NCBI RefSeq assembly: GCF_051201565.1
Contig: NZ_CP179200.1
Span: 120,001-152,000, forward strand
Length of the DNA: 32,000 nt
Direction of reading: 5' to 3'
DNA from: Pseudothioglobus sp. nBUS_23
GTDB lineage: Bacteria > Pseudomonadota > Gammaproteobacteria > PS1 > Pseudothioglobaceae
The position numbers were made by a program, and so were the translations under genes. Under the pieces are notes generated by a model. It searched no databases, was not told where the DNA came from, and saw nothing but the letters and a program-made list of their open reading frames with translations. Positions 1,501 to 30,114 of this stretch are shown here, one piece after another (the stretch's first letter is position 1; every line of letters begins with the position of its first letter).

Positions 1501-2499
1501 ATGGATAAGAAAACAAGAGACAACTCCGCAATGATGAATGGCCTCTATTGGTGGGGCGTTCCTACTTTGTTTCGATGTCCTCATCAGCCTGAGACTGATG
1601 GCTGTGATATTGCACTTGTTGGCGTTCCACATAGCACCGGGAATGGGACAACACAGCGCGATCAGCATTTGGGACCTAGGGCAGTTAGAAATATTTCAGC
1701 TCAGGGCAGAAGAGGACACTTAAAGTTTGGAATCTCTCCCTGGGAGATGTGTGAAATTAGAGATTTTGGTGATGTTCCCCTTCCCGAAGCTAACAATAAT
1801 GAGCAATGTATTGAGCGCATTACTGAGTTTTATGATGTCATTGCAAAGTCGGGTGTTAGGCCTATTTCAATTGGCGGTGACCATTCAATTACTGGAGGAA
1901 TTCTGCAGGCCATTGCAGGCCCCAAGTCCAAACTCACAAATGGTGAAAAAGCAGTACTAGTTCATTTTGATGCTCATACTGATGCATTTCATCAGCTCGA
2001 TCATTTCCTAGGTGCTGTTAAATCAGCGGCCCATTGGGCGAGCTATTTGGTCAGAGATGGATTTGTTGATGCGTCAAAAAGCATACAGGTTGGCATTAGG
2101 GGCAATACCAGAACGCTTGACTGGCTTGATTCAAGTTATGAGCTCGGATACGAAATTATTACCAAGGATCAGTACGATGAATACGGTGTTGAAAAATGTA
2201 TAGAAATGATTCAAGAGCGTGTTGGTGATGCGCCAATCTACATTACATTTGACTTAGACTGTTTAGACGTGACCGTAGCACCTGGAGTCTCTAATCTAGA
2301 GCCGGCAATTGAGGGTTTCAAGATGCCAGATGTTCTTAAAATGCTTCAAGGTTTAAGAGGTAAAAATATTATTGGTGGTGACGTTGTCTGTCTGATGCCA
2401 ACAGTTGACTCACCTAATCAGATTACAGCACATGTTGCAAACTCTATCATGTTTGAGATGGTCTGTTTGATTGCTGACAATATGGGTAATAAGTCTTAA
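1501..2499 (+). CDS. Ureohydrolase (arginase/agmatinase/guanidino-acid hydrolase family), substrate uncertain
   Basis: 332 aa. Binuclear-Mn ligand motifs are intact: GGDHSIT, HFDAHTDAF, TFDLDCLD. The substrate-side motifs diverge from canonical agmatinase (see finding). Confidence 0.85.
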   Translation: MDKKTRDNSAMMNGLYWWGVPTLFRCPHQPETDGCDIALVGVPHSTGNGTTQRDQHLGPRAVRNISAQGRRGHLKFGISPWEMCEIRDFGDVPLPEANNNEQCIERITEFYDVIAKSGVRPISIGGDHSITGGILQAIAGPKSKLTNGEKAVLVHFDAHTDAFHQLDHFLGAVKSAAHWASYLVRDGFVDASKSIQVGIRGNTRTLDWLDSSYELGYEIITKDQYDEYGVEKCIEMIQERVGDAPIYITFDLDCLDVTVAPGVSNLEPAIEGFKMPDVLKMLQGLRGKNIIGGDVVCLMPTVDSPNQITAHVANSIMFEMVCLIADNMGNKS

Positions 2500-2882
2500 G
2501 ACCTATAATTTTCCAGATGAATGTCCAAAGCCTTCGTAGATATCAAAGTTTCTAGGAGTGCAAAAAAGAGCGAGCCAGATAACATAAGAAGTCCAAAGCC
2601 AAATACGTAATTGGCAAATAAATAGTATTTGAGATAAACCAAAATAATTGTCATTAAGTTAAAGATAAAACTCATAACACCGAATACTTGCATTCTTCTT
2701 ATATAGATCACGCGCTTTTCTAGAATATTCAGTTGTTCATCTGCATGCTTGGTTTTAGATTCATCGCTTCCTTCTGTTGTCATTGCACGAATTAAGACGC
2801 TAAGCGAGTGAAGCCGATTTGTATAGGCCACAAACAAAAGAGAGATTGCAGGGAAGAGAAGTGCGGGAGTTGTAATATCCAT
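2496..2882 (-). CDS. Small integral membrane protein, DUF2721-like
   Basis: 128 aa. The N-terminal segment LLFPAISLLFVAYTNRLHSLSVLIR resembles the DUF2721 signature as I recall it, and there are 2 further hydrophobic helices at the C-terminus. Its stop overlaps the convergent ureohydrolase stop by 4 nt. Confidence 0.6.
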   Translation of the reverse strand: MDITTPALLFPAISLLFVAYTNRLHSLSVLIRAMTTEGSDESKTKHADEQLNILEKRVIYIRRMQVFGVMSFIFNLMTIILVYLKYYLFANYVFGFGLLMLSGSLFFALLETLISTKALDIHLENYRS

Positions 2883-2924: not shown

Positions 2925-5231
2925 TTAAAACTTAGTTGATTTAATGACATCAATAAGCTGATGCATATCATCCTCATCCGAATAAATGTGTGGCGATAGC
3001 CTAATTCCTTGACTTCGAAGGTCAACACTAATTTTATGATCACTAAGACTTTTTAAAATTTTCTCTTGGTAGTTTTTAAAATTAAGAATCATTGTGCCGC
3101 CTCGCTTTGCTTCATTTCTTGGAGATACAAATTCATCATCGAAAGATTCTTCAACAACCTTAATGAGTTTTTGGTTGTGCTCTCTAACTTTAATGATTCC
3201 TAATTGATTAAAGTATTTGATACTATTCGTAGCGGTAATATAAGGAGCAACTGATGGAGTTCCACCCCAAAATCTTAATGCAGTATCTGTATAGCGAAAA
3301 TCATGAATATCAAACTCAAAAGGATTTTCATGGCTAAACCAGCCCACATCTCGAGGATTACAAAAAGGCAAGCGATTAGAATTAACCCACAAAAAAGCTG
3401 CACCGGGACCACCACAGAGCCATTTGACGCATGAGCCAATCATAAAGTCTGGCTTAAGGATGTTTAAATCAATTGGAACAATTCCTGCAGATTGAGCAAT
3501 ATCAAGTATGGAGATTATATTTTTTGATTTTGAATGATTAATCACATCTGAAATAGGTGAGATCTGGCCCGTATTTGAGTAAGCGTGACTAACGAAGACT
3601 ATATCAATATCATTGGTCAGGTATTTTTTCCAAACTTCAAGATCTGTGACATCCTCATTGGAAGGTATAAATCGAACTTCAGAGCCCTCAGGGAGTGATT
3701 TTTTTAACGTGAAGCCCATTCCTGGAAAATCTATCTCACTCATTAGAACAGTTCTAGTGCTCTTTTGCGTGTCTGGAAGAGATAATATTATTTTACTAAG
3801 TCCAGAGGATAAATTGACTTGAGGGCAGAATTCCGTTGATTTAGCATTAAAGAGTTTGGAGAGTTCTGAGGTAAAGTCTTCTATTGACTGAAGCCAATCA
3901 TTCCAGGGTTCACTCAGAGAGTTGGACCATGTCATAAAAAACTGATTATTAAAAAACTTTTCGGTTTCTTTGAGTGGCCTTCCAACTGAATGACTTAAAA
4001 GATAGTTGGCTTCTGTTAATATGAAATCATTTTTTAACGTATTTAACGAAGACTCTTTGTCTTTAAGTTTCTTTTTGAGAATTTTAATATCATGGTGCCT
4101 CGAAGGTATATCTTTTCGGTCTGCTGCAGCTCTTCTATCTCTGAGTTTCTCCAGTGAATTAATTAAAATTTCTAGTGGCGGTCCACTTGCCGTAATATTA
4201 TCTAGCTGAGACTCTTTTAAAGCACCTGACGGAGCAGCAATGTATTTTTTAACAAGTTGATTGTGGTGTTGTTTTGCAGCATCACCATGTAGTTCACATA
4301 ACTCTAAAAACAGCGTTAAATTTTTTTTATACCATGATTGATTTACATTTTTCGTGTTTAAAAACTCATCCATAAAACTTGATCGTCTCATGCAGTCTCT
4401 GAGAATGGCCTGATCTTCCGGCATCATATACATAAACTTATCAACAAGCATTTGAGAATAGGCTGGTTCCTTTGCGAGGCAAAGTCCTAAAAGTATGTCG
4501 ATGACATTAATTCCAGCAAAATCGCCAGCATTTGCTCCACGGTAGACTTGGAATCCTACATGATAAGGCTTATAGTATGGCCTTACGCAATAAAAAAAAT
4601 CATCAACATCAAGTCTGTCAAAAAGAATTTGATTTGATTTTATAACTTCTTCAAGTGACTCTTTTGTCACCTCAAATAGCTCTTCACTCATAGGATGTGA
4701 TATTCCTAGAGAGTGGAGTTTTAGAAGGGCGTCACCAGCTCTCTTGTATGCGAGTATGGCTTTAGTGTTGTAATCAAGAAAGAATTTTTCAGCAGGAAGA
4801 GTTGTAAAACTTTTATAGACACCATTAATCGCTTTATTGTGTGTGGATAGGTGGGCTGTTGCAAATCGAGGAGTGACACCAATTGAGGCGCCAATATTCA
4901 TCGCTAGTCCAGATGCTTCTTTAAGAGGCGAAGATGAATCTCTAGAGGGATCGGTAATTTCATGTCTTCGACAAGAGGCCATATAGAGACCAACATTCCC
5001 CAATAAATCAAAAGCGCTATCAAATCCCTCGTCCGTATTTCCTTCATAGAGCAGTTTTTTTATATATTCCCTGCCCTCATTTTCGATTGATTTCTTTAGC
5101 TCATCCCCAACCAAATGAACATTGATTCGTTCAGGCTGTTTTTTATAAAGAAATTCAAGTTCTGTATTCATTTCAACAAAACTATTTCTTATCCAATGAT
5201 CAAAAGCAATTGAATTTGGCGTCATGAGCAA
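2925..5231 (-). CDS. Fusion protein: N-terminal IDO/PrnB-like heme dioxygenase domain + C-terminal kynureninase-like (class V fold) PLP enzyme
   Basis: 768 aa. Residues 232-250, GANAGDFAGINVIDILLGL, match the IDO signature GGSAGQSSVFQCFDVLLGI. Residues 322-331, HHNQLVKKYI, match the IDO proximal-His helix YHLQIVTKYI. The C-terminal half carries kynureninase motifs: YLLSHSVGRP, DFMIGSCVKWLCGGPGAAFLWV (Lys603 as candidate PLP lysine) and GWFSHENPFEF...RFWGGTPSV. Confidence 0.8.
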   Translation of the reverse strand: MLMTPNSIAFDHWIRNSFVEMNTELEFLYKKQPERINVHLVGDELKKSIENEGREYIKKLLYEGNTDEGFDSAFDLLGNVGLYMASCRRHEITDPSRDSSSPLKEASGLAMNIGASIGVTPRFATAHLSTHNKAINGVYKSFTTLPAEKFFLDYNTKAILAYKRAGDALLKLHSLGISHPMSEELFEVTKESLEEVIKSNQILFDRLDVDDFFYCVRPYYKPYHVGFQVYRGANAGDFAGINVIDILLGLCLAKEPAYSQMLVDKFMYMMPEDQAILRDCMRRSSFMDEFLNTKNVNQSWYKKNLTLFLELCELHGDAAKQHHNQLVKKYIAAPSGALKESQLDNITASGPPLEILINSLEKLRDRRAAADRKDIPSRHHDIKILKKKLKDKESSLNTLKNDFILTEANYLLSHSVGRPLKETEKFFNNQFFMTWSNSLSEPWNDWLQSIEDFTSELSKLFNAKSTEFCPQVNLSSGLSKIILSLPDTQKSTRTVLMSEIDFPGMGFTLKKSLPEGSEVRFIPSNEDVTDLEVWKKYLTNDIDIVFVSHAYSNTGQISPISDVINHSKSKNIISILDIAQSAGIVPIDLNILKPDFMIGSCVKWLCGGPGAAFLWVNSNRLPFCNPRDVGWFSHENPFEFDIHDFRYTDTALRFWGGTPSVAPYITATNSIKYFNQLGIIKVREHNQKLIKVVEESFDDEFVSPRNEAKRGGTMILNFKNYQEKILKSLSDHKISVDLRSQGIRLSPHIYSDEDDMHQLIDVIKSTKF

Positions 5232-5373
5232 AGATTATTTAAAAAAGCAAATCTTATCATTCTTCTTTAAATTTATTTAACTAAAATCAACTTATAATTA
5301 AAATTATATTGAATACAATCACTAAAATAATAATAATTAATATAGAATATAGCTAATAATACAAATAATAATA

Positions 5374-5868
5374 ATGAATATTACTATGGACTCGAAAGAT
5401 CTACGTATCTTGACATTACTTCAACAAAATGGAAGAATGCCAATTTCAGAATTAGCTACAAAACTCAATATGTCTGATACGCCCTGTTTAAGGCGTGTCA
5501 AAAAAATGGAAGAATCAGGTGTGATTAGTGGGTATTCTGCAAACATCTCTGCCGACAGTATTGGCTTTAATGCTATTGTCTATGTTTTTGTACGACTCAC
5601 CGAGAATTCTAATGCTAATGCTGACATGTTCGAGAGTGCTGTTAAGAAATTAATTGAGATTCAGGAGTGCTCAGTCATTTCTGGATCCCATGATTACCTT
5701 TTAAAAATTATCTCTAGAGATCTGCTAAGTTATGAAAGTTTTATTAAACAATCAATCGGAAATTTAAGATGTGTCTCAAGCATTGAATCTACTGTTGTAC
5801 TTAAGCAGACTTTTGCCAGATATGAACTGCCGATAGATAATACTGAAAAAAAATCTAGTTTTTTCTAG
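5374..5868 (+). CDS. Lrp/AsnC family transcriptional regulator
   Basis: 164 aa. HTH_AsnC-type N-terminus (LDSKDLRILTLLQQNGRMPISELATKLNMSDTPCLRRVKKMEESGVI) plus a C-terminal RAM/ligand domain. Divergent from the dioxygenase-kynureninase fusion. The start may be the ATG at 5386. Confidence 0.9.
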   Translation: MNITMDSKDLRILTLLQQNGRMPISELATKLNMSDTPCLRRVKKMEESGVISGYSANISADSIGFNAIVYVFVRLTENSNANADMFESAVKKLIEIQECSVISGSHDYLLKIISRDLLSYESFIKQSIGNLRCVSSIESTVVLKQTFARYELPIDNTEKKSSFF

Positions 5869-6625: not shown

Positions 6626-7405
6626 TTAGCAGTTGTATTTAGTCTTCATTTTTTCAGTTTGTAAATAGTAGTCATAGAGCTTGAGGTCTGAGGCCGCAAG
6701 TTTGTCTAAGACTATAGTAGCATTAAGATGATTTTGAAGAGCACTGCCAGGACAAAATGCAGAGAGTGGACCTTCTACGACATCTGCAACCGCCTTGCTT
6801 TTATGTTTACCCAGGCCAATCAGCAGAATATTTTTAGCTTCCATGATGGTTCCAATTCCCATTGTTAGTGCCAGTGATGGCTGGTTTTCATGAGGCTTAA
6901 AAAAACGAGCATTTTTTGAGAGTGTATTTTTTGTCAATGTTTTAACTCTTGTTCTAGACTGTAAGCTCGAAGTAGGTTCATTGAAACCAATGTGCCCATT
7001 CGATCCAACCCCTAAGAGCTGAAGACCAATGCCTCCATGTTTAGCTATATTAGCTTCATAGTTTGAGCTAGCTGAGTCAAAGTTTTCATCAAAACACTCA
7101 GGAATATAGACATTATTTGGATCAATATCAATATGATCAAATAGCTTTTGGTTCATATAATTTCGATAGCTCTGAATATGATTTGGAGGTAAGCCAATGT
7201 ATTCATCTAAGTTAAAAGTAATAGTATTTTTAAAACTAAGCATTCCATTTTTATAATGATTTATCAATGCTTCATAAGTCAAAAGAACTGAGCCACCTGT
7301 TGCTAATCCAACAATAGGATTTTTGTTATTATTTATATAATCTGTAATAAATTGACCTGCAAAATTACTGGCCTCAACCTCTGTTGGAAGGATGACTACT
7401 CTCAT
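6626..7405 (-). CDS. nagB: Glucosamine-6-phosphate deaminase
   Basis: 259 aa classical NagB: GLATGGS, FNLDEY, GVGSNGHIGFNEP. Overlaps the upstream nagA stop by 4 nt. Confidence 0.92.
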   Translation of the reverse strand: MRVVILPTEVEASNFAGQFITDYINNNKNPIVGLATGGSVLLTYEALINHYKNGMLSFKNTITFNLDEYIGLPPNHIQSYRNYMNQKLFDHIDIDPNNVYIPECFDENFDSASSNYEANIAKHGGIGLQLLGVGSNGHIGFNEPTSSLQSRTRVKTLTKNTLSKNARFFKPHENQPSLALTMGIGTIMEAKNILLIGLGKHKSKAVADVVEGPLSAFCPGSALQNHLNATIVLDKLAASDLKLYDYYLQTEKMKTKYNC

Positions 7406-8550
7406 GGTTGTATGCGCTCTATTGGGTTGCCCGCTAACCAGACATTTTGGATTTTGAAATCTGAGCTAAAATGCACAAGGTCGGCTCTGTAGCCTTTTTT
7501 GAGTTGCCCTAGGCGGTCAGATACGCCTATATACTCAGCTGGGTAAAGCGTTGCCATTGAGATTGCACTCTCGAGCGGAATGTTACATTTCTCGTAAGCA
7601 TTTTTTATCGCATCAATTTGCGTTATAGAGGATCCCGCTAGCTTGCCTTCAGAGTTAATAATTCGTCCTTTGGATTCACTGACTACTTCATCATAAAGCT
7701 CAAAAGAGGGCTCACCATGGTTAATGGTAGCCATCGAATCAGAGACAAAAAACAGTTTACCTTCAGGCTTTTGTTTAAATGATAAATTAATTAAGGATGG
7801 GTGTACATGATGTAAGTCAACAATAATACTAGCCCAGACTTCATCAAAATCTAATGCAGAGCCAACAACTCCAGGCTCTCGAGCAGAAATTTGACCCATT
7901 GCATTAAATAAATGTGTAAAGCCATCTAACCCATACTTAATAGACTCTTCAAGTTGATCATAGTTTGCATCTGTATGGCCAGCTAAGATTTTAAATCCTA
8001 ATGACTTTAGGCTCTTAAGTTGTTTAATAGAAATGCATTCAGGCGCTAGTGTCAACATCACAGGGAACTCATTCAATGTTTCAAATAGACTCATATAGGT
8101 GGCATTAATAGTATTGATGTATTGCTTTTGGTGAACCCCACGATATTTAACATTAAAAAATGGACCTTCTATATGAACGCCCAACAGAGATTGATTGTTA
8201 TGAATCTCTTTTGAAATGGTGTCTGTGCATTCTTGAAGTACATTGAGTGAGTCACTAATCACGGTAGGCATAATGCTAGTTGTGCCAAAATGTTGATGCG
8301 CACTTATTATTGTATTTAGGCTGTCTTTATCTGGCGAGTTATTAAATAGCTTACCGCCTCCACCATTGACCTGAAGGTCGATAAAGCCAGGAGAGAGAAT
8401 GCCACCATTTAAATTTTGAGTCTCAAAATCCTGTGGAATCTGAGATTCATCAACTATCTCAATAATTTCTTCATTTTCAAATAAAAGTGCTTTATTGTCA
8501 GCCAATTCTTTGCCAGAAAAAAGTTGAGCCCCTGTCAGTGCTTTTTTCAT
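7402..8550 (-). CDS. nagA: N-acetylglucosamine-6-phosphate deacetylase
   Basis: 382 aa amidohydrolase with NagA motifs: GFIDLQVNGGGG, HIEGPFF, LAGHTDA, THLFNAM, DLHHV. Overlaps the regulator gene stop by 4 nt. Confidence 0.92.
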   Translation of the reverse strand: MKKALTGAQLFSGKELADNKALLFENEEIIEIVDESQIPQDFETQNLNGGILSPGFIDLQVNGGGGKLFNNSPDKDSLNTIISAHQHFGTTSIMPTVISDSLNVLQECTDTISKEIHNNQSLLGVHIEGPFFNVKYRGVHQKQYINTINATYMSLFETLNEFPVMLTLAPECISIKQLKSLKSLGFKILAGHTDANYDQLEESIKYGLDGFTHLFNAMGQISAREPGVVGSALDFDEVWASIIVDLHHVHPSLINLSFKQKPEGKLFFVSDSMATINHGEPSFELYDEVVSESKGRIINSEGKLAGSSITQIDAIKNAYEKCNIPLESAISMATLYPAEYIGVSDRLGQLKKGYRADLVHFSSDFKIQNVWLAGNPIERIQP

Positions 8551-9299
8551 CCCAGTTCTACCACATAATCATAACGATCGCCTCGATAGTAAGACTGAGT
8601 ATATTCAACTACTCGTCCATTAGCATCCTTGCCGCGCCTCTCAACAAACAAAACAGCACTGCCTGGGGTCACTTCAAGTTTATCTGCAAGATTATCATCG
8701 GCTATGATGGCATGAATATTTTGCTTTGCTGTTACAGGATTCATATTTTTAGATTCTAATAATTCATAAAGAGAATTATCCAATGCTGATGTGATTGAAA
8801 TAATAGAGGCAGGAATGACTGCTATTTCATAGAGTAGTGGTTCATTAACCAGGTAGCGAACTCGATTTAGTCTGTGAACCAAATCACCTTCATTTAAATT
8901 CAAAATTAAGGCTTCTTTTGGTGAGGCCTTTCCCTCTTCCCTAAGAACCACTCTTGAGTATGACTCAAGCCCTCTTTTTTTCATATCCGCCGTAAAACTG
9001 TTTAAAGATGAAAGGTTTTTATGAAGCACAAGATCAACATTTTCAGAGACAACAGTTCCTGCTCCTTGTCTTTTGACAAGCAGGCCAATTTCAACAAGCT
9101 GATCAATAGCTTTACGAACAGTAATTCTAGACATTTTTAAACTAGTGGCCAGGTCTCTCTCTGGAATAAGTGCATCTCCAGGACTCAGGAGACCCTCCTG
9201 GATGGCATTATTGAGTGATCGAGATAATTGTTTATATAAGGATTCAGAGCTATCACTCGATGGCTTTAAAAAATTAATCAAATTGTCATTAGTAGCCAT
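8547..9299 (-). CDS. GntR/HutC-subfamily transcriptional regulator (NagQ/NagR-like) with UTRA effector domain
   Basis: 250 aa. GntR winged HTH (PERDLATSLKMSRITVRKAIDQLVEIGLLVKRQGAGTVV) followed by a UTRA-like C-terminal domain. It is the first gene of the regulator-nagA-nagB operon. Confidence 0.88.
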   Translation of the reverse strand: MATNDNLINFLKPSSDSSESLYKQLSRSLNNAIQEGLLSPGDALIPERDLATSLKMSRITVRKAIDQLVEIGLLVKRQGAGTVVSENVDLVLHKNLSSLNSFTADMKKRGLESYSRVVLREEGKASPKEALILNLNEGDLVHRLNRVRYLVNEPLLYEIAVIPASIISITSALDNSLYELLESKNMNPVTAKQNIHAIIADDNLADKLEVTPGSAVLFVERRGKDANGRVVEYTQSYYRGDRYDYVVELG

Positions 9300-9347
9300 A
9301 ATCTCTTTAGTTTACTAAATTTAAAATAATATGATAAATTATTAAAA

Positions 9348-9368
9348 ATTGGTATTTAATTGGTATTA
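9348..9368. promoter_or_regulatory. Candidate NagQ-type operator 1: tandem AATTGGTATT repeats (TGGTATT-N4-TGGTATT)
   Basis: AATTGGTATT occurs at 9348-9357 and again at 9359-9368, a perfect 10-bp direct repeat with 11-bp period. It abuts the predicted -10 of the minus-strand promoter. Confidence 0.55.
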
Positions 9369-9398
9369 TTATAAACTGACTATTTACAAGCAGTCAAT
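9369..9398 (-). promoter_or_regulatory. Predicted sigma70-type promoter for the regulator-nagA-nagB operon
   Basis: The minus strand reads TTGACT (9398-9393), an 18-nt spacer, then TATAAT (9374-9369). This lies about 70 nt upstream of the regulator start codon. Confidence 0.5.
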
Positions 9399-9533
9399 CT
9401 TTATAACAAAATATAATTGAGAAAATATTAGATCAATATATTTAAAACAAGATTAAAAATTCAATATATAAGGCTTATCTACTTGGCTTTATTGTGATAG
9501 AAACTAAAAAACAATTTTTTTTGAGCATTTAAT

Positions 9534-9563
9534 TTGTTTTTTATTAAATTCCTGTTATATAAT
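9534..9563 (+). promoter_or_regulatory. Predicted sigma70-type promoter for the GH20/ABC/oxidoreductase operon
   Basis: TTGTTT (9534-9539), an 18-nt spacer, then TATAAT (9558-9563). This lies about 80 nt upstream of the ATG at 9646. Confidence 0.45.
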
Positions 9564-9578
9564 ACCATTATATTACCA
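9561..9578. promoter_or_regulatory. Candidate NagQ-type operator 2: inverted copy of the tandem repeat (AATACCA-N4-ATTACCA)
   Basis: AATACCA at 9561-9567 and ATTACCA at 9572-9578. The reverse complement reads TGGTAAT-ATAA-TGGTATT. The site overlaps the predicted -10 of the plus-strand promoter. Confidence 0.5.
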
Positions 9579-9645
9579 ATTTGAAATGAGCTATGTACTC
9601 ATAATTAGTGAGAAATAGCCTTTTTTAAGATAGCGAGAACTGAAG

Positions 9646-11637
9646 ATGAGTACAACAGATTTTGTAATTAAAACATCAATCAATTCCGAGAATTATTTTT
9701 GCTCTAAGCTGATTAATAATTCGAATGAATCAATTGAAGGCTTTATGTTTTGCTTTAGCGTGCTCGCACCTGTGAAGATCATAGATAACTGCGTTTTACA
9801 TTTTAGCTCTGGCGGATATGCTGAGTTAAAACCGAATGCTGGGTTTGTTTTAAAACCTGGCGATGAATGGAGCTTTAAGTTTGCTTATGAAGAAACAAGA
9901 CACAAGCCGATGAATTATAGATGGTCTCCTCAAGGATGTTTTTTAAAAACAGAAAATGAAGAAATATTAAACTTAAATGTTATAGATTTAGACTTAGAAA
10001 GAATCTCCTCCGTGGCACCAATCCCCCATATTTCGGGAGATAAATTAAATTATGAATCACTACGATTGGTGCCACACCCTTATTCATGGACTGCGAGTGC
10101 AGGAGTGTGCAACCTATGTCCACCTGTCAATGTTTTCTTTGACGATAACTCAATAATTCATAGTGCCTATGAATCTGCATGTCAGCTAGGAAAACGCATA
10201 AATCTTAATTTGTTTCCTGAAAAAATAAATAATGAAATCAGCAATGCCTCAACCTCAGTTAAGATTAAACACCTTGTGTCAATGGATGAGTCTTCCTATG
10301 AAATTATAATCACCAGTGATGTCATTGAGATTATTGCGGGAGATGAAACTGGGATTTATTATGGCCTGATCTCTCTAATGCAACTAGCTCAAACCTATCA
10401 TCAATTAGTGCCCTGCGGAGCAATAATTGATAAGCCTCGCTTTAGTTGGAGAGGACAACACTTAGATACAGTAAGACACTACTTTTCTGCCGACAGTATT
10501 TTAAAACTTCTAGATTTAATGAGCTTATTTAAACTCAATAAGTTTCATTGGCATGGAGCAGATGATGAGGCATTTCGATTTAAATTAGATGATGATTATG
10601 AAATCGCGACTTCAACCTCAACAAGAGGTGATGGTCAATTAGTACCTCCTGTGTTCGGATCTGGACCATTTCCATCTGGAGGCTGTTATGACTTAGTTCA
10701 GATTAAAAGAATTATTGATAGGGCTTCAGAAAACTACATTGAAGTAATGCCTGAGTTTGACCTGCCAGGACATAATATGTCACTCGTCAAACTTTATCCA
10801 AGTATGCGAGATCCAGAGGATAAAAGTTATGAAGTCTCAGTCCAGGGATATACTGAAAACACAGTAAACCCAGCTATGCCAGATACTTTTTTAATATTGG
10901 AAAAGGTAATTGATGATCTATGTAAAGTATTTCCAGGTGAATATATTCACTTAGGAGCTGACGAGATTGCGCCTGATGCATGGAGTAAATCTCCTGCCAT
11001 TGATTCTCTTAAGTCTAAGCATAATCTCAATACTAGCAAAGATGTAGCCTCATGGTTTATTAATAAACTTTCAAAGAGAGTAGAACTAAACAATAAAAAA
11101 ACTGCCGCTTGGCAAGAGGCTGAGGATGGAAAGCATCAGGATGTGAAGATAGATAAGTTATTATTTTCTTGGCAGAATTTAGAGTCTGGTATTAGCCTTG
11201 CACGGCAAGGATTTAAAGTTGTACTGTGTCCAGCTGAGTTTATTTATTTTGATATGGCTCAAAGTAGAAACTATGCGGATCGAGGAGCAAACTGGGCAGC
11301 AGTTATTCCATTTGAAAAAACTTTAGATTGGTCAATTATTCCAAAGGATGAGCCTGAGCTTGAAGCAAATGTTGAGGGTATTCAGGGCCATCTATGGTGT
11401 GAAACTATTCTTCAAGACTATGAAATGGAGTCTATGCTGTGTCCAAGAATTTTAGGTCTATCAGAAAGTGCTTGGTCGAGCCAAAGTAATAGAAGGAGTG
11501 GCGGCGAATTAAATGATTTAGTATTGAGTAGTTACAGAAACCTATTTAAAAAAATCGAATGGGACTTTTATAAGCCAGAGAATTTTGATATGATGTCCGA
11601 TCCAGCAATGAATAAGGAGGCATTGGTCAATGAGTAA
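9646..11637 (+). CDS. Beta-N-acetylhexosaminidase (GH20, chitobiase-type), cytoplasmic
   Basis: 663 aa. GH20 catalytic-domain motifs: RGQHLDTVRHYF, FHWHGADDEAFR, IHLGADE (Asp-Glu catalytic pair), LWCE. No signal peptide. Its stop overlaps the first permease start by 8 nt. Confidence 0.88.
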   Translation: MSTTDFVIKTSINSENYFCSKLINNSNESIEGFMFCFSVLAPVKIIDNCVLHFSSGGYAELKPNAGFVLKPGDEWSFKFAYEETRHKPMNYRWSPQGCFLKTENEEILNLNVIDLDLERISSVAPIPHISGDKLNYESLRLVPHPYSWTASAGVCNLCPPVNVFFDDNSIIHSAYESACQLGKRINLNLFPEKINNEISNASTSVKIKHLVSMDESSYEIIITSDVIEIIAGDETGIYYGLISLMQLAQTYHQLVPCGAIIDKPRFSWRGQHLDTVRHYFSADSILKLLDLMSLFKLNKFHWHGADDEAFRFKLDDDYEIATSTSTRGDGQLVPPVFGSGPFPSGGCYDLVQIKRIIDRASENYIEVMPEFDLPGHNMSLVKLYPSMRDPEDKSYEVSVQGYTENTVNPAMPDTFLILEKVIDDLCKVFPGEYIHLGADEIAPDAWSKSPAIDSLKSKHNLNTSKDVASWFINKLSKRVELNNKKTAAWQEAEDGKHQDVKIDKLLFSWQNLESGISLARQGFKVVLCPAEFIYFDMAQSRNYADRGANWAAVIPFEKTLDWSIIPKDEPELEANVEGIQGHLWCETILQDYEMESMLCPRILGLSESAWSSQSNRRSGGELNDLVLSSYRNLFKKIEWDFYKPENFDMMSDPAMNKEALVNE

Positions 11638-12571
11638 TTTGATACAAATGCTTAAACCTAAAACTAAATCTCAAACCACCACGCTTTTTGCATGGGCGCT
11701 TATTGCGCCTGCAGCTCTGGTCATGTTTTGGATAGTCGTTTGGCCTCTTTATGAAACTTTTAGACTCTCATTTACAAATTCTAATCTAGGTACACTCATG
11801 GGTGGGGCGGAATATATTGGATGGGAAAACTATGAAAAGGCAATAGGTGGTCGAAAGTTTCCATCAATTGTAACAAGAACTTTTTACTGGATGTTTTTAT
11901 CAGTTGGCTTGAAGATAGTTTTGGGGTTAATTGGAGCATCTTTACTTGCAAGTAACATAAGAGCTAGAGGTGTTTTTCGTGCTCTGGTTATGCCGCCATG
12001 GATAGTACCAATAGCAATAGGTTGTTTTGGGTGGTTGTGGCTATATAATGGCCATTTTGGACTCATCTCAAACTTTATAGAAATGGTCGGCATTACTGAT
12101 GGACCTTTCAGTTTCTTGGCATATAAACAAAGTGCTTTTTACTCTGCGGTTGTTACTGATGTATGGATTGGAACCCCAATGGTAACCCTGTTCTTTTTGG
12201 CTGCAATTCAAGGTGTCCCAAGAGATCTTTATGAAGCCGCATACGTTGATGGTGCTTCTCGTTGGTATCGCTTTAGAAGAATAACTTTGCCTCAAATTAT
12301 GCCAACAATAGTCTCAATGGCTCTTCTCTCTGCAATATGGACCTTTAATTCTTTTGAAATTATTTGGATATTAACTGAAGGTGGCCCACGTGGAGGAACT
12401 ACTACATTAATTATTGATACTTTTAAGACTGCAATCTTTAGTTACAAGTTTGGCGCAGGCGCAACAAGAGCGGTGTTAGTTGTTTTAATACTCGGAGTAT
12501 TCTCTCTAATTTATTTGACGGTACTTGATAAGCTTAACAAAAGGTATGGTTATTCTGGAGTTCAAAAATGA
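11630..12571 (+). CDS. Carbohydrate ABC transporter permease (MalF/UgpA-type, CUT1)
   Basis: 313 aa, multi-TM. EAA loop: LYEAAYVDGASRWYRFRRITLPQI. A strong AAGGAGG RBS sits at 11614-11620. Confidence 0.9.
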   Translation: MSNLIQMLKPKTKSQTTTLFAWALIAPAALVMFWIVVWPLYETFRLSFTNSNLGTLMGGAEYIGWENYEKAIGGRKFPSIVTRTFYWMFLSVGLKIVLGLIGASLLASNIRARGVFRALVMPPWIVPIAIGCFGWLWLYNGHFGLISNFIEMVGITDGPFSFLAYKQSAFYSAVVTDVWIGTPMVTLFFLAAIQGVPRDLYEAAYVDGASRWYRFRRITLPQIMPTIVSMALLSAIWTFNSFEIIWILTEGGPRGGTTTLIIDTFKTAIFSYKFGAGATRAVLVVLILGVFSLIYLTVLDKLNKRYGYSGVQK

Positions 12572-13452
12572 TGGATAAATATACATTCCTACAAAAAATA
12601 GGGATTTATTCTTCTCTTGCTTTGTTCATTCTATTTATGCTTCTGCCATTTGTAGAGATGTTTATTGCTTCATTGAGGCCTTTGACCCATTTGTTTAGTA
12701 GGCCTGATGTTCCTGTTGGTGAAACTATGACCTTTATGGATTTTATGAGTCGTTTCTATTCTGACAAAATGAGCTTTCAAGCATATAGAGATATGTGGGT
12801 TACTGTTCCTCAGTTACCACGGTACATTTTCAATAGTGTATTTTTATCAACTGCTGTGACATTTTTTTCTATGTGTTTTATTGTTCCTGCTGCATATGCC
12901 TATGCGAGATTTGACTTTCGTGGAAAAACGACAAGTCTTACTCTATTTCTTGCAGTGAATATGTTTTCAGGCGCTGTGCTTCTAATACCTCTATACAAAC
13001 TATTAAGGGTTTATGGTTTATTAAACACCTATTGGGCAATGATTATTCCAGGGGTAGCATTTCTTATACCAACTGGAATTTGGCTGCTCAAGTCATTTTT
13101 GGAAAAAATTCCTTATGAGCTGGAGGAAGCTGCTTTTGTAGATGGAGCATCTAGACTTTATACCTTGCGCCGTGTAATATTGCCTTTAGCGGTCCCAGGA
13201 TTAATTGTGGTCGGTGTTGCTATGTTTATTGGAGCATATGCACAACAATTCTTATTTGCGATTACATTTAATCAAGATAGAGACTATATGCCACTTCCAG
13301 CCGGCATATTTGAATTTATTGGATACCAAGACGTATTGTGGAACGAAATGATGGCCGCAAGTCTTGTAGGAATTCTGCCCGTGTTGTTAATTTTCCTGTT
13401 TATGCAGAAACATTTGATAGCAGGATTAACATCAGGCGCAGTAAAGGAGTGA
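12568..13452 (+). CDS. Carbohydrate ABC transporter permease (MalG/UgpE-type, CUT1)
   Basis: 294 aa, multi-TM. EAA loop: LEEAAFVDGASRLYTLRRVILPLA. Overlaps the preceding permease by 4 nt. Confidence 0.9.
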   Translation: MMDKYTFLQKIGIYSSLALFILFMLLPFVEMFIASLRPLTHLFSRPDVPVGETMTFMDFMSRFYSDKMSFQAYRDMWVTVPQLPRYIFNSVFLSTAVTFFSMCFIVPAAYAYARFDFRGKTTSLTLFLAVNMFSGAVLLIPLYKLLRVYGLLNTYWAMIIPGVAFLIPTGIWLLKSFLEKIPYELEEAAFVDGASRLYTLRRVILPLAVPGLIVVGVAMFIGAYAQQFLFAITFNQDRDYMPLPAGIFEFIGYQDVLWNEMMAASLVGILPVLLIFLFMQKHLIAGLTSGAVKE

Positions 13453-13530
13453 GAATTAAAATACTCACATTTAGTATTACTAGATCTATTTTATTCTAGT
13501 AATTTGTTGTAAAAATAAAAGGAGAAGTAA

Positions 13531-14736
13531 ATGAAAAATATAACTAAAGCACTTTTCTTGGCAGTAATTGGAGCGGGTTTAATTGCTCCAGTTCAGGCTG
13601 AGGAAGTTCACATGATTATGTGCGGTGGTGAAATTCGTGAAGCTGATCAAGCAGTAATTTCTGCTTTTGAATCCAAGCACTCGGGTGTTACAGTCAATGC
13701 AGAAGCAGTTCCATGGGGAACTTGTCAGGATAAATCTATGACATTAGCTGCTGCTGGTGATCCTGTAGGTCTTGCTTACATGGGCTCACGTACCCTAAAG
13801 CAATTGGCACGTAGTGGATTGATTATTCCAGTTGATATTTCCGACGAACAGCAAGGCATGTATCAGCCAGGTATTCTCAATACAGTTACTGATGGTGGAA
13901 AAACTTGGGGATTCCCACACGCTTTTTCTACAAAAGCTTTGTTCATCAACTGTGGTTTAGTTGAAGAGGCAGGTATGGCATGTGTAGCTCCAAAGACTTG
14001 GGCAGGTATGTATAACATGGCTAAAGCAATTAATGACAATACTTCAGCTGCAGGTGTTGGCTTAGCTGCTAAAGACTTTGACAATACAATGCACCAATTC
14101 TTGAACTATCTTTATAGTAATGGCGGTTCTGTAAGTAATGCAGATACTGGAGAAATTACTTTTAACAGTCCAGAAACTGTCGAAACACTTGAGTTTGTTG
14201 GCAAATTGGCTGGTGTTGCTCAGGAAGGACCATCTGGATATGAGCGTTCTCAATTGACTCAGTTATATAACGATGGTCAAATTGGAATGTATATCAATGG
14301 ACCATGGGGCGCTGGACAGCATAATGATAACATTGCTGAAATCGTAGTTCCAATTCCCGCTGGACCAAGTGGTGAAAGTGGAACATTATTAATCACTGAC
14401 TCAATTGCGGTTTTTAAAGGTTCTGCAAATGAAGATCTTGCAATGGAATTGGCTTCAATGCTTTCATCAGGTGAGGCTCAGTACGATCTTGACATGAGCT
14501 GGGGTTTAACTCCAATCATGCAGTATGAGAAAATGATGGATGATGTCTACTACACAACTGACTATTGGAAAGTTTTTGTTGATCCAATTGGTAGTGGTGG
14601 ACCAGAGCCAATGTTTGAGGACTTTAAAGCACTTCAGGCAGGTATCAACAGCGCCATCCAAGGCATAATCTTGGGCGAGGGATCTGCTGCTGATCTAGTG
14701 GCAGAGGCTGCTGAAACTCTAGCAGAGGGTCTGTAA
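13531..14736 (+). CDS. ABC transporter extracellular solute-binding protein (family 1, sugar/oligosaccharide)
   Basis: 401 aa. Signal peptide MKNITKALFLAVIGAGLIAPVQA/EE. SBP_bac_1-like organisation. RBS AAGGAGAAG lies upstream. Confidence 0.85.
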   Translation: MKNITKALFLAVIGAGLIAPVQAEEVHMIMCGGEIREADQAVISAFESKHSGVTVNAEAVPWGTCQDKSMTLAAAGDPVGLAYMGSRTLKQLARSGLIIPVDISDEQQGMYQPGILNTVTDGGKTWGFPHAFSTKALFINCGLVEEAGMACVAPKTWAGMYNMAKAINDNTSAAGVGLAAKDFDNTMHQFLNYLYSNGGSVSNADTGEITFNSPETVETLEFVGKLAGVAQEGPSGYERSQLTQLYNDGQIGMYINGPWGAGQHNDNIAEIVVPIPAGPSGESGTLLITDSIAVFKGSANEDLAMELASMLSSGEAQYDLDMSWGLTPIMQYEKMMDDVYYTTDYWKVFVDPIGSGGPEPMFEDFKALQAGINSAIQGIILGEGSAADLVAEAAETLAEGL

Positions 14737-14749
14737 GTCTAGAAACTAA

Positions 14750-14775
14750 TCAGGGGTAATGAAAATTGCCCCTGA
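14750..14775 (+). terminator. Possible intra-operon attenuating hairpin / weak intrinsic terminator after the SBP gene
   Basis: TCAGGGG (14750-14756), a 12-nt loop, then CCCCTGA (14769-14775), followed by ATTTAAT. This is only a weak U-tract. Confidence 0.35.
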
Positions 14776-14899
14776 ATTTAATGAGGTGAGCATTAAAAGT
14801 ACGTTTAATTTATTGAGCGTTCTTTTAGGGCAGGCTTTGTCAAAAGTATTTAATTATTTTAAAAATGCGTATGAAATACGCTTAAGTTAGGAAAGCAAT

Positions 14900-15979
14900 A
14901 TGGCGTCTGTAAAACTCGAAAATATTAGTAAGAGCTTTGGTGAAACTGAAGTTTTGTTTGATATTAATCTTGAGATTAATGATAAAGAGTTTGTTGTTTT
15001 TGTTGGACCATCAGGCTGTGGAAAAACAACTTTACTGAGAATTATTTCCGGCCTAGAAGAGGCAACCGTTGGCAGTGTACTTATAGACGGCAATGATGTT
15101 TCGAATGCACCTCCAGTCGAGAGAGGCATTTCTATGGTATTTCAATCTTATGCACTTTATCCCCATCTTTCAGTTTTTGAAAATATTGCTTTTCCTCTAA
15201 GAGTTGCAAAAGTTAATGAAAAAGAATTAGAGGAAAAGGTTTTTAAAGCTGCCGATATTTTGCAATTAAGAGATCGTTTAGATTTTAAACCTGGTCAACT
15301 TTCAGGTGGGCAGCGTCAAAGGGTGGCGATTGGTCGTTCTATTGTTAGGGACCCAAAAGTGTTCCTTTTTGACGAGCCGTTATCGAATTTAGATGCAGCT
15401 CTTCGAGGTGATATGAGGGTCGAACTCGCTAAACTTCATCAAAATTTAAATTCAACAATGATTTATGTCACGCATGATCAGATTGAAGCGATGACGATGG
15501 CAGATAAGATTGTAGTTTTGCATGATGGTGTGATTGAACAAGTTGGCTCCCCAATGGATTTATACCACAACCCTAAAACAAAATTTGTCGCTGGCTTTAT
15601 TGGCCACCCTAATATGAATTTTTTACAAGCAAGTGATACAAAAATTAACAAGGGTAAATTGACAGCAACTCTTGGCGATTCTACTGTGAATATACCTTTA
15701 GAGGCTGGAGACACCAAAGACGGTGATAGTATAGAAATTGGGATTCGACCTGAAGATACTGTAGTGTCTAATAAAGGAGGTGTTCCAATGAATGTTGATG
15801 TTGTAGAGCATGTTGGAGCAACTGTTATCTTATATGGTTCTGTCTTAGATAATAGTAATTTTTGTGCAGTGCTGCCTAGTGATTCAGTTATTAAGCCGGG
15901 TGATGAGATTCATCTTACGATAGATTCAAATAAATGCCATGCTTTCAATCTAGCAGGTCAAGCACTTAAAAGAATTTAG
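14900..15979 (+). CDS. Sugar ABC transporter ATP-binding protein (MalK/UgpC/MsmX-type)
   Basis: 359 aa. Walker A GPSGCGKTT, Q-loop, signature LSGGQRQR, Walker B VFLFDEPLSNLD, H-loop VTHD. C-terminal TOBE-like regulatory domain. Confidence 0.93.
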   Translation: MASVKLENISKSFGETEVLFDINLEINDKEFVVFVGPSGCGKTTLLRIISGLEEATVGSVLIDGNDVSNAPPVERGISMVFQSYALYPHLSVFENIAFPLRVAKVNEKELEEKVFKAADILQLRDRLDFKPGQLSGGQRQRVAIGRSIVRDPKVFLFDEPLSNLDAALRGDMRVELAKLHQNLNSTMIYVTHDQIEAMTMADKIVVLHDGVIEQVGSPMDLYHNPKTKFVAGFIGHPNMNFLQASDTKINKGKLTATLGDSTVNIPLEAGDTKDGDSIEIGIRPEDTVVSNKGGVPMNVDVVEHVGATVILYGSVLDNSNFCAVLPSDSVIKPGDEIHLTIDSNKCHAFNLAGQALKRI

Positions 15980-24571: not shown

Positions 24572-25276
24572 ATGAGTGAAGAAGACGATTTTGACCTAAA
24601 TGATCTTGATGATAAGGAGCTCGTTGAGCAAATTCAAGATGACCTCTATGATGGTCTTGATGCTGAAGTAACTGAGGGAACTGAAATTCTACTTTCAAGA
24701 GGATGGGATGCTAACGACGTTCTAGGTGAAGCCTTAGTTGGTGGTATGAAGATTGTAGGAATAGATTTCAGGGATGGTATTCTTTTTGTTCCAGAAGTCT
24801 TAAAGTGTGCTGGTGCGATGAAGGGCGGTATGAGTATATTAAGACCTATACTTGCCGAATCAGCTGAAGATACATCATTAGGAAAGTTTGTTATTGGTAC
24901 TGTTAAAGGCGACATTCATGACATCGGTAAAAACCTTGTGGGGATGATGTGTGAGGGAGCAGGGTTTGAGGTCATTGACCTCGGCATTAACAATCCTGTT
25001 GAAAACTATTTAGAGGCAGTTGATACTCATGAGCCGGTTATCCTTGGAATGTCTGCATTACTCACCACAACAATGCCTTACATGGGAGTTGTTGTTGAGG
25101 AAATGGAAAAAAGAGGAATGCGAAAAGACGTACACATAATGTGTGGCGGCGCTCCTTTGAATCAAGAATTTGCTGATTCAATTGGTGTGCCTGCTTATGG
25201 TCGTGATGCTGCAAGAAGTGCTGAAATGGCCGAAGAACATGTCCGCGGCCTTGGTAAAAACCGTGCTCACAGATAA
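24572..25276 (+). CDS. Corrinoid (cobalamin-binding) methyl-carrier protein, MtgC/MttC-like
   Basis: 234 aa. B12-binding_2 helical cap plus a Rossmann-like B12-binding domain with DxHxxG (GDIHDIGKN), SxL (SALLTTT) and GG (CGGAPL) motifs. The N-terminal extension is unusually acidic. Confidence 0.9.
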   Translation: MSEEDDFDLNDLDDKELVEQIQDDLYDGLDAEVTEGTEILLSRGWDANDVLGEALVGGMKIVGIDFRDGILFVPEVLKCAGAMKGGMSILRPILAESAEDTSLGKFVIGTVKGDIHDIGKNLVGMMCEGAGFEVIDLGINNPVENYLEAVDTHEPVILGMSALLTTTMPYMGVVVEEMEKRGMRKDVHIMCGGAPLNQEFADSIGVPAYGRDAARSAEMAEEHVRGLGKNRAHR

Positions 25277-25898: not shown

Positions 25899-25921
25899 GA
25901 GTTATTTAGGATGAAAGAATT

Positions 25922-26824: not shown

Positions 26825-26840
26825 CTTAGGAGTAAATAAA

Positions 26841-27737: not shown

Positions 27738-27740
27738 TTT

Positions 27741-30094: not shown

Positions 30095-30114
30095 TTATAG
30101 TATGGAGAATTTAA

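Follow-up and report, generated by a model that had tools for sequence, protein, structure and literature searches.

An SO4414-type heme protein and a kynureninase-like PLP enzyme, encoded by a two-gene operon in many marine bacteria, are fused into a single polypeptide in the Pseudothioglobus lineage

The SO4414/DUF1864 family has been represented by crystal structures since 2005/2006, and our literature searches found no function assigned to it. SO4414 of Shewanella oneidensis was crystallised with ferric heme (title of PDB entry 2NWB), and the fold of entry 1ZEE has independently been described as resembling indoleamine 2,3-dioxygenase (IDO; PMC2447717). Downstream of SO4414 lies a kynureninase-like gene, reached after the SO4414 stop codon, a spacer of ~5 bases and an ATG in another frame. 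The window analysed here, a 32-kb stretch of Pseudothioglobus DNA, holds the same two parts in the same order, but as one gene, whose C-terminal domain is 57% identical to the downstream Shewanella protein. A second point of reference is the KynR-kynBU/kynA regulon of Pseudomonas. As there, an Lrp/AsnC-type gene in the window stands beside predicted tryptophan-opening and kynureninase-type functions; unlike there, kynB is missing and the oxygenase is IDO/PrnB-like, where Pseudomonas has a TDO.

The list of open reading frames gave one uninterrupted minus-strand frame at window positions 2925..5231; counted from a TTG at 5229-5231 it spans 768 aa, and its stop codon lies at 2925-2927. Because the 5' end reads TTG-CTC-ATG and close homologs measure 766-767 aa, the true start is probably the ATG at 5223-5225, which would make the fused gene 2925..5225 (-) and its product 766 aa; residue numbers given here follow the 768-aa frame. 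Pfam matches to PrnB and Aminotran_5 within this one frame bear out a sequence-only reading of the locus, which had proposed that a heme domain of the IDO/PrnB superfamily and a PLP domain resembling kynureninase are fused in a single polypeptide. The alternative of a decaying pseudogene, or of an artefact of assembly or frameshift, is an a priori possibility, given that the halves are separate genes in most other genomes, but we regard it as vanishingly improbable. It is refuted by more than 120 full-length fused homologs of 766-767 aa from independent assemblies (72-98% identity; drawn from ENA, JGI, NCBI, Logan and TARA, and including a single-cell genome and contigs >200 kb), by the retention of all family-invariant residues in both halves, and by a junction that stays in frame in diverged members.

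Inspecting the spread of the architecture revealed the fusion in hundreds of metagenomic sequences, all confined to the Thioglobaceae/Pseudothioglobus lineage, and the split form widely among marine bacteria. The halves had been described as normally separate enzymes. They are indeed two genes in most genomes, but form a linked operon: in ~55 of 80 species-level loci, spanning many genera, they are adjacent on the same strand, often a few bases apart or overlapping, and usually accompanied by the same Lrp regulator. The divergence of the N gene correlates tightly with that of the C gene (Spearman 0.87). In ~14 loci, mostly of Alphaproteobacteria, the N gene occurs without a C-type partner nearby. 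The family is almost exclusively marine, with carriers in the ARCTIC96BD-19/Pseudothioglobus lineage, SAR92/Porticoccaceae, Pseudoalteromonas and Shewanella. The split pair is an ancient, tightly linked two-gene operon of many marine bacteria, and the gene in the window is a lineage-specific fusion of it.

The N-terminal heme domain (aa 6-389; 4065..5216 (-)) matches Pfam PrnB (PF08933, formerly DUF1864) over its full length with 606.9 bits (E 1.7e-182); this model is dominated by SO4414-like sequences. No match to Pfam IDO was found in the domain. Foldseek returned 65-67% identity to SO4414 (1ZEE/2NWB, E 4e-179), and in the AF2 model (pLDDT 88) the domain superimposes on the heme complex 2NWB with a TM score of 0.95 and an rmsd of 1.7 Å. 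A profile of the N-domain family reached PrnB (monodechloroaminopyrrolnitrin synthase) at E 3e-15 and human IDO1 at E 2e-5, placing the domain in the IDO/TDO/PrnB superfamily, and the model, the Foldseek hits and the profile matches all indicate the characteristic all-helical heme fold. PrnB, of the same Pfam family, is the nearest biochemically characterised relative and closer in sequence than IDO1, although single-sequence phmmer retrieved genuine PrnB at just E 2e-7, in a match that covers a part of the domain. Of the initial label, IDO/PrnB-like, the superfamily stands, but by sequence the domain is more precisely a member of the SO4414/DUF1864 subfamily, and neither simply IDO-like nor simply PrnB-like.

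Conservation is stronger in the N domain than in the PLP domain, with 119 positions at least 97% conserved. The predicted proximal heme ligand, His322 (4266..4268 (-)), lines up with IDO1 His346 and H313 of PrnB (chain 2v7i); at least 97% of 75 family members keep it, and the near-invariant His323 (4263-4265 (-)) adjoins it. The YRGANAGDF loop (aa 230-238; 4518..4544 (-)), each residue of which is at least 97% conserved, emerged from HMM alignment as the counterpart of the IDO1 distal loop GGSAGQS, its invariant G232-A-N-A-G236 pairing with G261-G-S-A-G265. Within 4581..4598 (-), the same alignment matches Phe212 and Arg217, invariant in the family, to IDO1 Phe226 and Arg231, the latter being the ligand of the substrate carboxylate. 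The positions first assigned to GANAGDFAGINVIDILLGL (aa 232-250), His322/323 (nt 4263-4268) and, in the other half, Lys603 (nt 3423-3425) were all correct, as were the motif assignments themselves (proximal His, GxxAG loop, PLP lysine block and GWFSH), both quoted IDO-type motifs pairing with IDO1 in the HMM alignment. IDO1 is nonetheless remote in sequence: residues of the distal pocket before aa 185 cannot be aligned, and catalysis by the domain is a prediction. Its predicted role as a b-type heme binder is supported indirectly by the ferric heme in the crystals of its homolog SO4414.

The C-terminal half (aa 400-768; 2928..4034 (-)) is a kynureninase-like class-V PLP domain with an Aminotran_5 match at aa 438-739 (E 6e-27) and a KYNU_C match of 28.0 bits (cutoff 27), a call that is precomputed for most, but not all, homologs. 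Its best structural and sequence relative is KynU (EC 3.7.1.3; 1QZ9), similar from end to end at 26% identity, albeit ~416 aa long against ~370 aa here. A profile of the C family found the kynureninases of P. fluorescens and human (8e-54 and 1e-34; 186 and 123 bits) far ahead of other PLP enzymes, which scored at most 109 bits (C-DES/SufS ~1e-30). On the NCBIfam kynureninase equivalog TIGR01814, however, the domain reached 80.6 bits and the partner protein of SO4414 in Shewanella 74.7, both missing the cutoff of 246.4 bits, which the P. fluorescens enzyme, our positive control, passed with 342 bits. By this score the domain is therefore a kynureninase paralog, not KynU. Assignment to the cysteine desulfurases or selenocysteine lyases (SufS, NifS, IscS) was rejected: the best score reached 82 bits where the cutoff stands at 475, and the SufS-type catalytic Cys is missing, the C-terminal loop reading R-L-S-P-H-I-Y and the sole Cys with at least 97% conservation, C469, lying elsewhere.

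Several residues with roles known from kynureninase are kept: K603, D577, F502, W631-F632 (GWFSH, aa 630-634) and R744, all at least 97% conserved, pair with K227, D201, F129, W256 and R375 of 1QZ9, that is, with the PLP lysine, the Asp facing the pyridine nitrogen, the stacking Phe, the GWF motif and the α-carboxylate Arg. Lys603 (3423..3425 (-)) is the predicted Schiff-base lysine. Arg744 (3000..3002 (-)) comes from the alignment of GlRlSPh with ImRFGFT; its counterpart, Arg375, binds the substrate α-carboxylate in kynureninase. The position of kynureninase Trp64 also holds Trp, matching the kynurenine-preferring bacterial enzyme; in the human enzyme, which prefers 3-hydroxykynurenine, the site is His102. 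Other positions depart from the canonical enzyme. The PLP lysine is preceded by Val602 (at least 97% conserved), where kynureninases carry Tyr (Tyr226 in P. fluorescens), Met505, which stands at the Asp132 position, is not conserved, and the counterpart of Asn35 is His. The replacement of Tyr before the lysine and the unconserved Asp132 position imply that substrate or chemistry may differ from those of kynureninase.

Between the domains, a flexible linker (aa 392-415; 3987..4058 (-)) was delimited by pLDDT and by the position of the junction relative to split forms. It is predicted to be disordered at aa 392-398 and 405-415 (pLDDT below 50), and the seven K/R residues within aa 380-405 agree with its initial description as basic. 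Comparison with the split genes traces it to what used to be the spacer between them and to the very start of the PLP protein. The relative orientation of the domains is undefined in the model of the fused protein (pTM 0.56).

Divergently from the fused gene, positions 5374..5868 (+) encode a 164-aa regulator of the Lrp/AsnC family, as had been proposed, with Pfam matches to HTH_AsnC-type and AsnC_trans_reg (E about 1e-16 each) and to HTH_24. It is not Lrp itself: the NCBIfam Lrp equivalog, whose cutoff is 233 bits, gave it 104. Half of the loci (40/80) carry an Lrp/AsnC homolog in the same divergent position; those of the S. oneidensis group lack it and have a DcuA/B-type transporter in its place. 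Since Pseudomonas KynR is an Lrp/AsnC-type regulator, the parallel drawn with it is plausible. The intervening 148 bp (5226..5373; 14% GC) form a putative divergent promoter/operator region, in which alignment of five orthologous intergenic regions uncovered conserved blocks, among them a TTTTAGTGA-like element that is repeated; promoter-like matches were weak.

The merging of the two genes strongly suggests that their products work together on tryptophan or an amino acid resembling it. Starting from the domain identities, the conserved residues that anchor cofactors and substrate, the operon-to-fusion relation and the linked regulator, all observed here, we infer substrate, products, order of steps and regulator effector as follows. 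With evenly balanced confidence, we propose a bifunctional enzyme born of a fused operon, in which heme-dependent ring opening of an indole amino acid, most likely L-tryptophan, precedes a kynureninase-type cleavage. The N domain would ligate b-type heme via His322, bind the indole α-amino acid and, with O2, open the pyrrole ring as IDO does, yielding an aryl-keto amino acid (N-formylkynurenine). The PLP domain, through Lys603, would then hydrolytically cleave between Cβ and Cγ to release L-alanine and (N-formyl)anthranilate, working either on N-formylkynurenine directly or on kynurenine deformylated by an unlinked or promiscuous hydrolase. The Lrp/AsnC regulator would respond to the amino acid, or to an intermediate of the pathway, by activating the gene, much as KynR acts on kynA/kynBU. 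Given a kynureninase-type partner, the heme step would have to deliver an aryl-carbonyl-alanine, that is, to be an IDO-like ring opening; a rearrangement and decarboxylation of the PrnB type would not fit, because its product would not be an aryl-carbonyl-alanine. Close coupling of the halves might be selected for, as free N-formylkynurenine is a reactive compound unless quickly hydrolysed.

Several observations speak against this proposal. The lack of an adjacent formamidase, already remarked upon from the letters, extends to the whole 32-kb window, and none is consistently linked across the 80 loci. The C domain, as described above, falls below the kynureninase threshold, with Val for Tyr and an unconserved Asp132 position, and the N domain lies nearer to PrnB than to IDO1 and lacks a C-type partner in the ~14 loci mentioned. 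In addition, isolated SO4414 is said to have been found by Forouhar and colleagues in 2007 to have no dioxygenase activity toward L-Trp. That reported inactivity would suit the same two-step logic applied to another substrate, such as a 5-hydroxy-, halogenated or methylated tryptophan or another modified indole or aromatic amino acid of seawater. We give this reading a smaller but appreciable probability. In its favour are also the proximity of the N domain to PrnB, whose substrate is 7-chloro-Trp, a C domain that differs from canonical kynureninase in several residues of the active site and falls short on the equivalog profile, the almost exclusively marine distribution, and a separate canonical kynA/kynB/kynU set that serves tryptophan in many organisms. 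Yet the residues for anchoring the α-amino-acid moiety resemble those of IDO, the Trp at the Trp64 position is that of the kynurenine-preferring bacterial enzyme, and the conserved neighbours in the 80 loci include neither a halogenase nor a hydroxylase or methyltransferase.

The reported inactivity of SO4414 could also reflect a heme domain that is not catalytic at all but regulates or helps the PLP enzyme joined to it, by sensing O2, redox state or gas or by binding substrate, while the PLP enzyme alone degrades imported kynurenine-like compounds. Sensors often make use of heme domains, and a flexible linker with undefined domain orientation would suit a regulatory module; we nevertheless deem this unlikely, as conservation is extreme (the 119 positions given above) and takes in the counterparts of the IDO1 carboxylate-binding Arg and distal loop, for which a sensor would have no need, and as the N domain is the more strongly conserved of the two and occurs without a PLP partner in the loci noted above. 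A biosynthetic role of the PrnB type, be it indole-ring rearrangement as in pyrrolnitrin or anthranilate supply for quinolone-type signals, appears very improbable. Its basis is the top Pfam name and the standing of genuine PrnB as nearest characterised relative, a similarity that is itself marginal. Neither prnA, prnC, prnD nor other biosynthetic genes occur in the window or among the conserved neighbours of the 80 loci, the product of PrnB does not carry the amino-acid moiety required by the PLP enzyme, and the fused gene adjoins catabolic and transport genes and an Lrp-type regulator in a streamlined heterotroph.

An extension of the preferred two-step proposal, which we put forward tentatively and consider rather doubtful, is that the fused enzyme, or a complex of the split pair, constitutes a self-contained short kynurenine pathway without formamidase. 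Its heme domain would be active only with its PLP partner, to which the reactive N-formylkynurenine would be handed over directly for conversion to N-formylanthranilate and L-alanine. Such dependence would explain the reported inactivity of isolated SO4414. If true, this would be an abundant route, so far overlooked, that lets marine heterotrophs gain alanine from tryptophan or photo-oxidised tryptophan.

As a natural fusion, the gene provides Rosetta-stone evidence for joint action of the heme protein and the kynureninase-like protein encoded next to it, and it points to studying both activities jointly, or the fused protein, over the heme protein alone. As carriers belong to the more abundant groups of marine heterotrophs, the pathway could be relevant to aromatic amino acid turnover in seawater. 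The architecture had been thought undescribed; literature searches turned up no published description or characterisation of it, but the protein is present in public databases with automatic domain calls, under the names 'aminotransferase class V-fold PLP-dependent enzyme', 'kynureninase' and 'cysteine desulfurase', which take no account of the heme domain and probably mislead. What is new is the fused form of an operon already known but uncharacterised.

On its downstream side, 42 bp from the fused gene, lies a gene for a DUF2721 small membrane protein (2496..2882 (-); Pfam DUF2721, E 5e-31), a neighbour seen only in the Thioglobaceae-type loci L001, L002, L081 and L082. No terminator-like site was found between the two genes, and the DUF2721 gene may be co-transcribed with the fused gene.

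The fused gene occupies 2925-5231 on the minus strand as one uninterrupted frame, 768 aa when counted from a TTG codon. Because its 5′ end reads TTG-CTC-ATG and close homologs measure 766-767 aa, the ATG at 5225, giving 766 aa, is the most likely start (residue numbers below keep the 768-aa frame). Pfam placed PrnB (PF08933) at aa 6-389 (E 1.7e-182, a match over the full length), Aminotran_5 at aa 438-739 (E 6e-27) and KYNU_C at aa 687-762 (28.0 bits; cutoff 27). Frame and domain matches confirm what had been proposed from the sequence-only reading—a two-domain fusion in a single ORF, divergent from an Lrp/AsnC gene—and the positions it assigned to the aa 232-250 motif, His322/323, Lys603 and GWFSH were correct on recheck.

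That reading had also raised the prospect of an assembly or frameshift artefact. Independent fused sequences, in their hundreds and including more than 120 full-length two-domain homologs (766-767 aa; 72-98% identity) retrieved from 5.8 billion proteins and originating from ENA, JGI, NCBI, Logan and TARA assemblies, contradict this, as does conservation in both halves, leaving the probability of an artefact negligible. As to how widespread the architecture is, the fusion is recurrent but confined to one lineage, Thioglobaceae/Pseudothioglobus. Among 1.84 billion representatives clustered at 50% identity and searched exhaustively, only one cluster spans both domains, the remaining strong matches being single-domain proteins of ~390 or ~370 aa. 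A group of fused proteins at 73% identity belongs to the window's lineage, given the gene order in common on its long contigs (GH20, GntR, NagA, NagB, MBL, Lrp, fusion, DUF2721, agmatinase, SDR). Database labels would suggest a SAR11 or PS1 origin for some entries, which we ruled out: the locus L001 (CALKDH010000034.1, labelled ‘PS1 clade’) carries the window's Thioglobaceae gene order, with flanking genes at 91-96% protein identity, and the protein P0081 (labelled ‘Pelagibacteraceae’) belongs to the 73%-identity group, whose long contigs keep that order. This shared order makes the labels look wrong and suggests mis-binning, so both are probably MAG binning errors.

The fusion derives from a widespread two-gene operon. 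With the N domain as query, a scan covering a single genome for each species yielded 80 loci, whose arrangement was read from stop-codon positions. Two were fused (L001 and L002, Thioglobaceae group). In about 55, an N gene was followed by a separate, directly adjacent C-type gene on the same strand; these came from Shewanella (including the SO4414 locus), Pseudoalteromonas, Porticoccaceae/SAR92/HTCC2207, Alteromonadaceae, Ferrimonas, Marinomonas and one Flavobacteriaceae MAG. The C-type gene lay on the opposite strand in 7 loci of the Woeseiaceae group and was absent nearby in about 14, mostly from Alphaproteobacteria. The two enzymes, initially described as normally separate, are thus encoded by separate genes in most loci, yet the majority of these are adjacent same-strand pairs. 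Many such pairs are spaced by a few bases or by an ATGA-type overlap, and comparison of fused and split junctions revealed the linker of the fused protein to be a read-through of the earlier spacer. AlphaFold predicted aa 392-415 of this linker to be disordered and did not fix how the two domains are oriented to each other (pTM 0.56). Identities of N and C counterparts to the window correlated across 62 loci (Spearman 0.87), a weak test since any two genes of one genome would also track phylogenetic distance. Canonical kyn genes were looked for beside the partner-less N genes of Alphaproteobacteria and not found. In two Marinicaulis loci without a PLP partner (L034, 6057-9179; L037, 6026-9155), the N-type heme gene comes after genes for a glutaryl-CoA-dehydrogenase-like acyl-CoA dehydrogenase and a 2OG-Fe(II) oxygenase, all in the same orientation; a member of that dehydrogenase family also adjoins the opposite-strand PLP gene of a Woeseiaceae-type locus (L046, 5484-6713).

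Among solved structures, SO4414 of Shewanella oneidensis (1ZEE and 2NWB) was the top match to the N-terminal domain by a wide margin (E 4e-179, aa 4-390 aligned). An AlphaFold model of the fused protein (input alignment of 31 sequences; mean pLDDT 88) superposed on 2NWB with a TM score of 0.95 and an rmsd of 1.7 Å at 67% identity (Foldseek), and the 2NWB entry, by its title crystallised with ferric heme, establishes heme binding experimentally for this close homolog. IDO and PrnB were absent from the Foldseek top 50, as PLP enzymes swamped the search with the two-domain model; the link to the IDO/PrnB superfamily comes instead from a profile of eleven diverse N-domain members, which matched genuine PrnB (E 3e-15) and human IDO1 (E 2e-5), bearing out the superfamily placement proposed at the outset. 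In the profile alignment, Phe226, Arg231, the GGSAGQS loop and the proximal His346 of IDO1 correspond to F212, R217, G232-ANAGDF and H322, all invariant within a family that has 119 positions conserved at 97% or more (75 members, species-level genomes). The N domain is a member of the SO4414 subfamily and neither IDO nor PrnB proper; identity as a true PrnB was ruled out by genomic context and low similarity. The IDO-like fold of SO4414 (DUF1864), uncharacterised as of 2008, has been noted independently (PMC2447717).

With the C-terminal domain as a single query, the best solved relative was Pseudomonas fluorescens kynureninase (1QZ9, E 1.6e-20), ranking above cysteine desulfurases. A 16-member family profile separated the two groups more clearly: 1QZ9 scored 186 bits (E 8e-54) and human kynureninase about 120-123 bits (E 1e-34), as compared to at most 109 bits (E about 1e-30) for C-DES and SufS. 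The domain aligns to 1QZ9 end to end at 26% identity. At least 97% conserved are the PLP Schiff-base lysine K603 (K227 of 1QZ9), the pyridine-nitrogen ligand D577 (D201), the PLP-stacking F502-P503 (F129), W631-F632 of the GWF motif (W256), the alpha-carboxylate-binding R744 (R375) and W443 of the substrate pocket (W64). In contrast, the kynureninase Tyr preceding the PLP lysine is replaced by Val602 and Asn35 by His414, and the counterpart of Asp132 is unconserved. Against the NCBIfam kynureninase equivalog TIGR01814 (cutoff 246.4 bits), the window domain and the Shewanella partner protein scored 80.6 and 74.7 bits, below the cutoff, whereas the genuine P. fluorescens enzyme, serving as positive control, reached 342 bits. 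The SufS-type catalytic cysteine was looked for in the domain and is absent; with scores far under cutoff, this ruled out the JGI name of cysteine desulfurase/selenocysteine lyase. The C domain is a kynureninase-like paralog, to be filed neither as KynU nor as a cysteine desulfurase. The same PLP domain type, at about 28% identity, occurs in two further proteins (P0249, 650 aa; P0265, 666 aa), fused to an unidentified region of ~280 aa, at the N-terminus of one protein and the C-terminus of the other.

The Lrp/AsnC-family regulator gene (5374-5868, plus strand) is separated from the fused gene by 148 bp of 14% GC, and a homolog takes the same divergent position in half of the surveyed loci (40/80); neighbour clustering across the 80 loci found no other broadly conserved neighbour. 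Aligning five orthologous loci revealed conserved blocks within 5226-5373, including TATATTCTATA and a twice-occurring TTTTAGTGA / GATTTTAGT element, which we consider candidate Lrp operator sites. Promoter and terminator matches did not rise above shuffled background. By analogy, the window regulator may parallel KynR, which is of the Lrp/AsnC type and activates kynA and kynBU in response to kynurenine. The Shewanella oneidensis group (L003-L011 and L014-L016) lacks the divergent regulator; in nine of these loci, a DcuA/DcuB-type C4-dicarboxylate transporter gene is divergent from the SO4414 homolog.

With respect to function, the N half keeps an intact IDO-like set of amino-acid-binding and heme-ligating residues, the C half is kynureninase-like with intact PLP site and carboxylate-binding residues, and the two halves are genomically coupled, ending in fusion, with an amino-acid-type regulator linked. 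We give roughly even credence to a route from Trp via N-formylkynurenine to (N-formyl)anthranilate and alanine, in which the heme domain would use O2 to open the indole of L-tryptophan, or of a close analogue, and the PLP domain would hydrolyse the aryl-carbonyl-alanine product to L-alanine and an aryl acid. A kynureninase-type hydrolase requires a gamma-keto alpha-amino acid, so the type of PLP partner constrains the heme chemistry: IDO-type ring opening gives such a compound, and PrnB-type rearrangement and decarboxylation does not. Biosynthetic chemistry of the PrnB type, yielding no substrate for the partner, is highly improbable. Three points nonetheless count against the Trp route: in sequence the N domain lies closer to PrnB than to IDO1, several active-site positions of the C domain differ from canonical kynureninase, and Trp dioxygenase activity reportedly went undetected in SO4414 (Forouhar et al., PNAS 2007). 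That the same chemistry acts on a modified tryptophan or another aromatic amino acid is a tentative alternative, and a heme domain serving as sensor or accessory rather than catalyst seems quite unlikely. It is an attractive idea that activity of the heme protein requires complex formation with its PLP partner.

Classical kynureninases convert N-formylkynurenine to N-formylanthranilate at low rates. As noted early on, no formamidase is adjacent, and none is encoded within the 32-kb window. Since formamidase is not linked, N-formylkynurenine may itself be the substrate of the PLP domain, yielding N-formylanthranilate, a conversion recognised in pathway maps; alternatively, an unlinked hydrolase would deformylate before the PLP step. 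Unless it is hydrolysed, N-formylkynurenine in free form loses its amino group spontaneously and becomes a reactive electrophile (preprint), which would be a reason to couple the two activities tightly or to fuse them. Formamidase candidates from neighbour clustering of the 80 loci were lineage-specific only: an Abhydrolase_3 esterase just past the Lrp gene in 12 Porticoccaceae/SAR92/HTCC2207 loci (for example 3038-3985 of L076, with HGGG and GDSAGG motifs and a Pfam E of 2e-60) and, in a single Woeseiaceae locus, an amidohydrolase downstream of the N gene. Abhydrolase_3 is the fold family of eukaryotic kynurenine formamidase, and the esterase is a possible lineage-specific candidate for an N-formylkynurenine formamidase; both associations are too weakly conserved to count as a linked formamidase.

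The pair has been visible as an operon since the SO4414 structures; the fused form is a new variant of a functionally unassigned parent system. The initial impression that the architecture had not been described holds for the literature searched (most subscription journals lie outside that coverage), in which we found no paper describing or characterising the fusion or operon and no functional study of the SO4414/DUF1864 (PF08933) family, but not for databases, which already contain the fused form with automatic domain calls. Its names there are generic or misleading (“aminotransferase class V-fold PLP-dependent enzyme”, “selenocysteine lyase/cysteine desulfurase”, “kynureninase”). A “cytochrome P422” preprint was set aside, as it concerns the unrelated DUF6875 family. 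For a family that has awaited a function for ~20 years, the fusion supplies strong comparative evidence, in abundant marine bacteria; it overturns no established knowledge and is of moderate significance.

Elsewhere in the window, the fused gene is followed at a distance of 42 bp by a DUF2721 membrane protein gene in the same orientation (2496-2882, minus strand), and no terminator-like site separates the two (scan at shuffled-background level). This association with the fusion is specific to the Thioglobaceae lineage. A cluster for chitobiose/N-acetylglucosamine use (6626-15979; NagB, NagA, a GntR/UTRA regulator, a GH20 hexosaminidase and an ABC sugar transporter) also flanks the fused gene in two other Thioglobaceae-type loci, L081 and L082. 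At 24572-31662 on the plus strand, a corrinoid-dependent methyltransferase cluster has the look of a system for quaternary-amine demethylation, for example of the glycine betaine or trimethylamine type. Its members are a B12-binding protein, DUF1638, an unassigned 300-aa ORF, a GFA-domain protein, a RACo-type reductive activase and two methyltransferases, one pterin-binding and one of the MttB family (E 1e-216).
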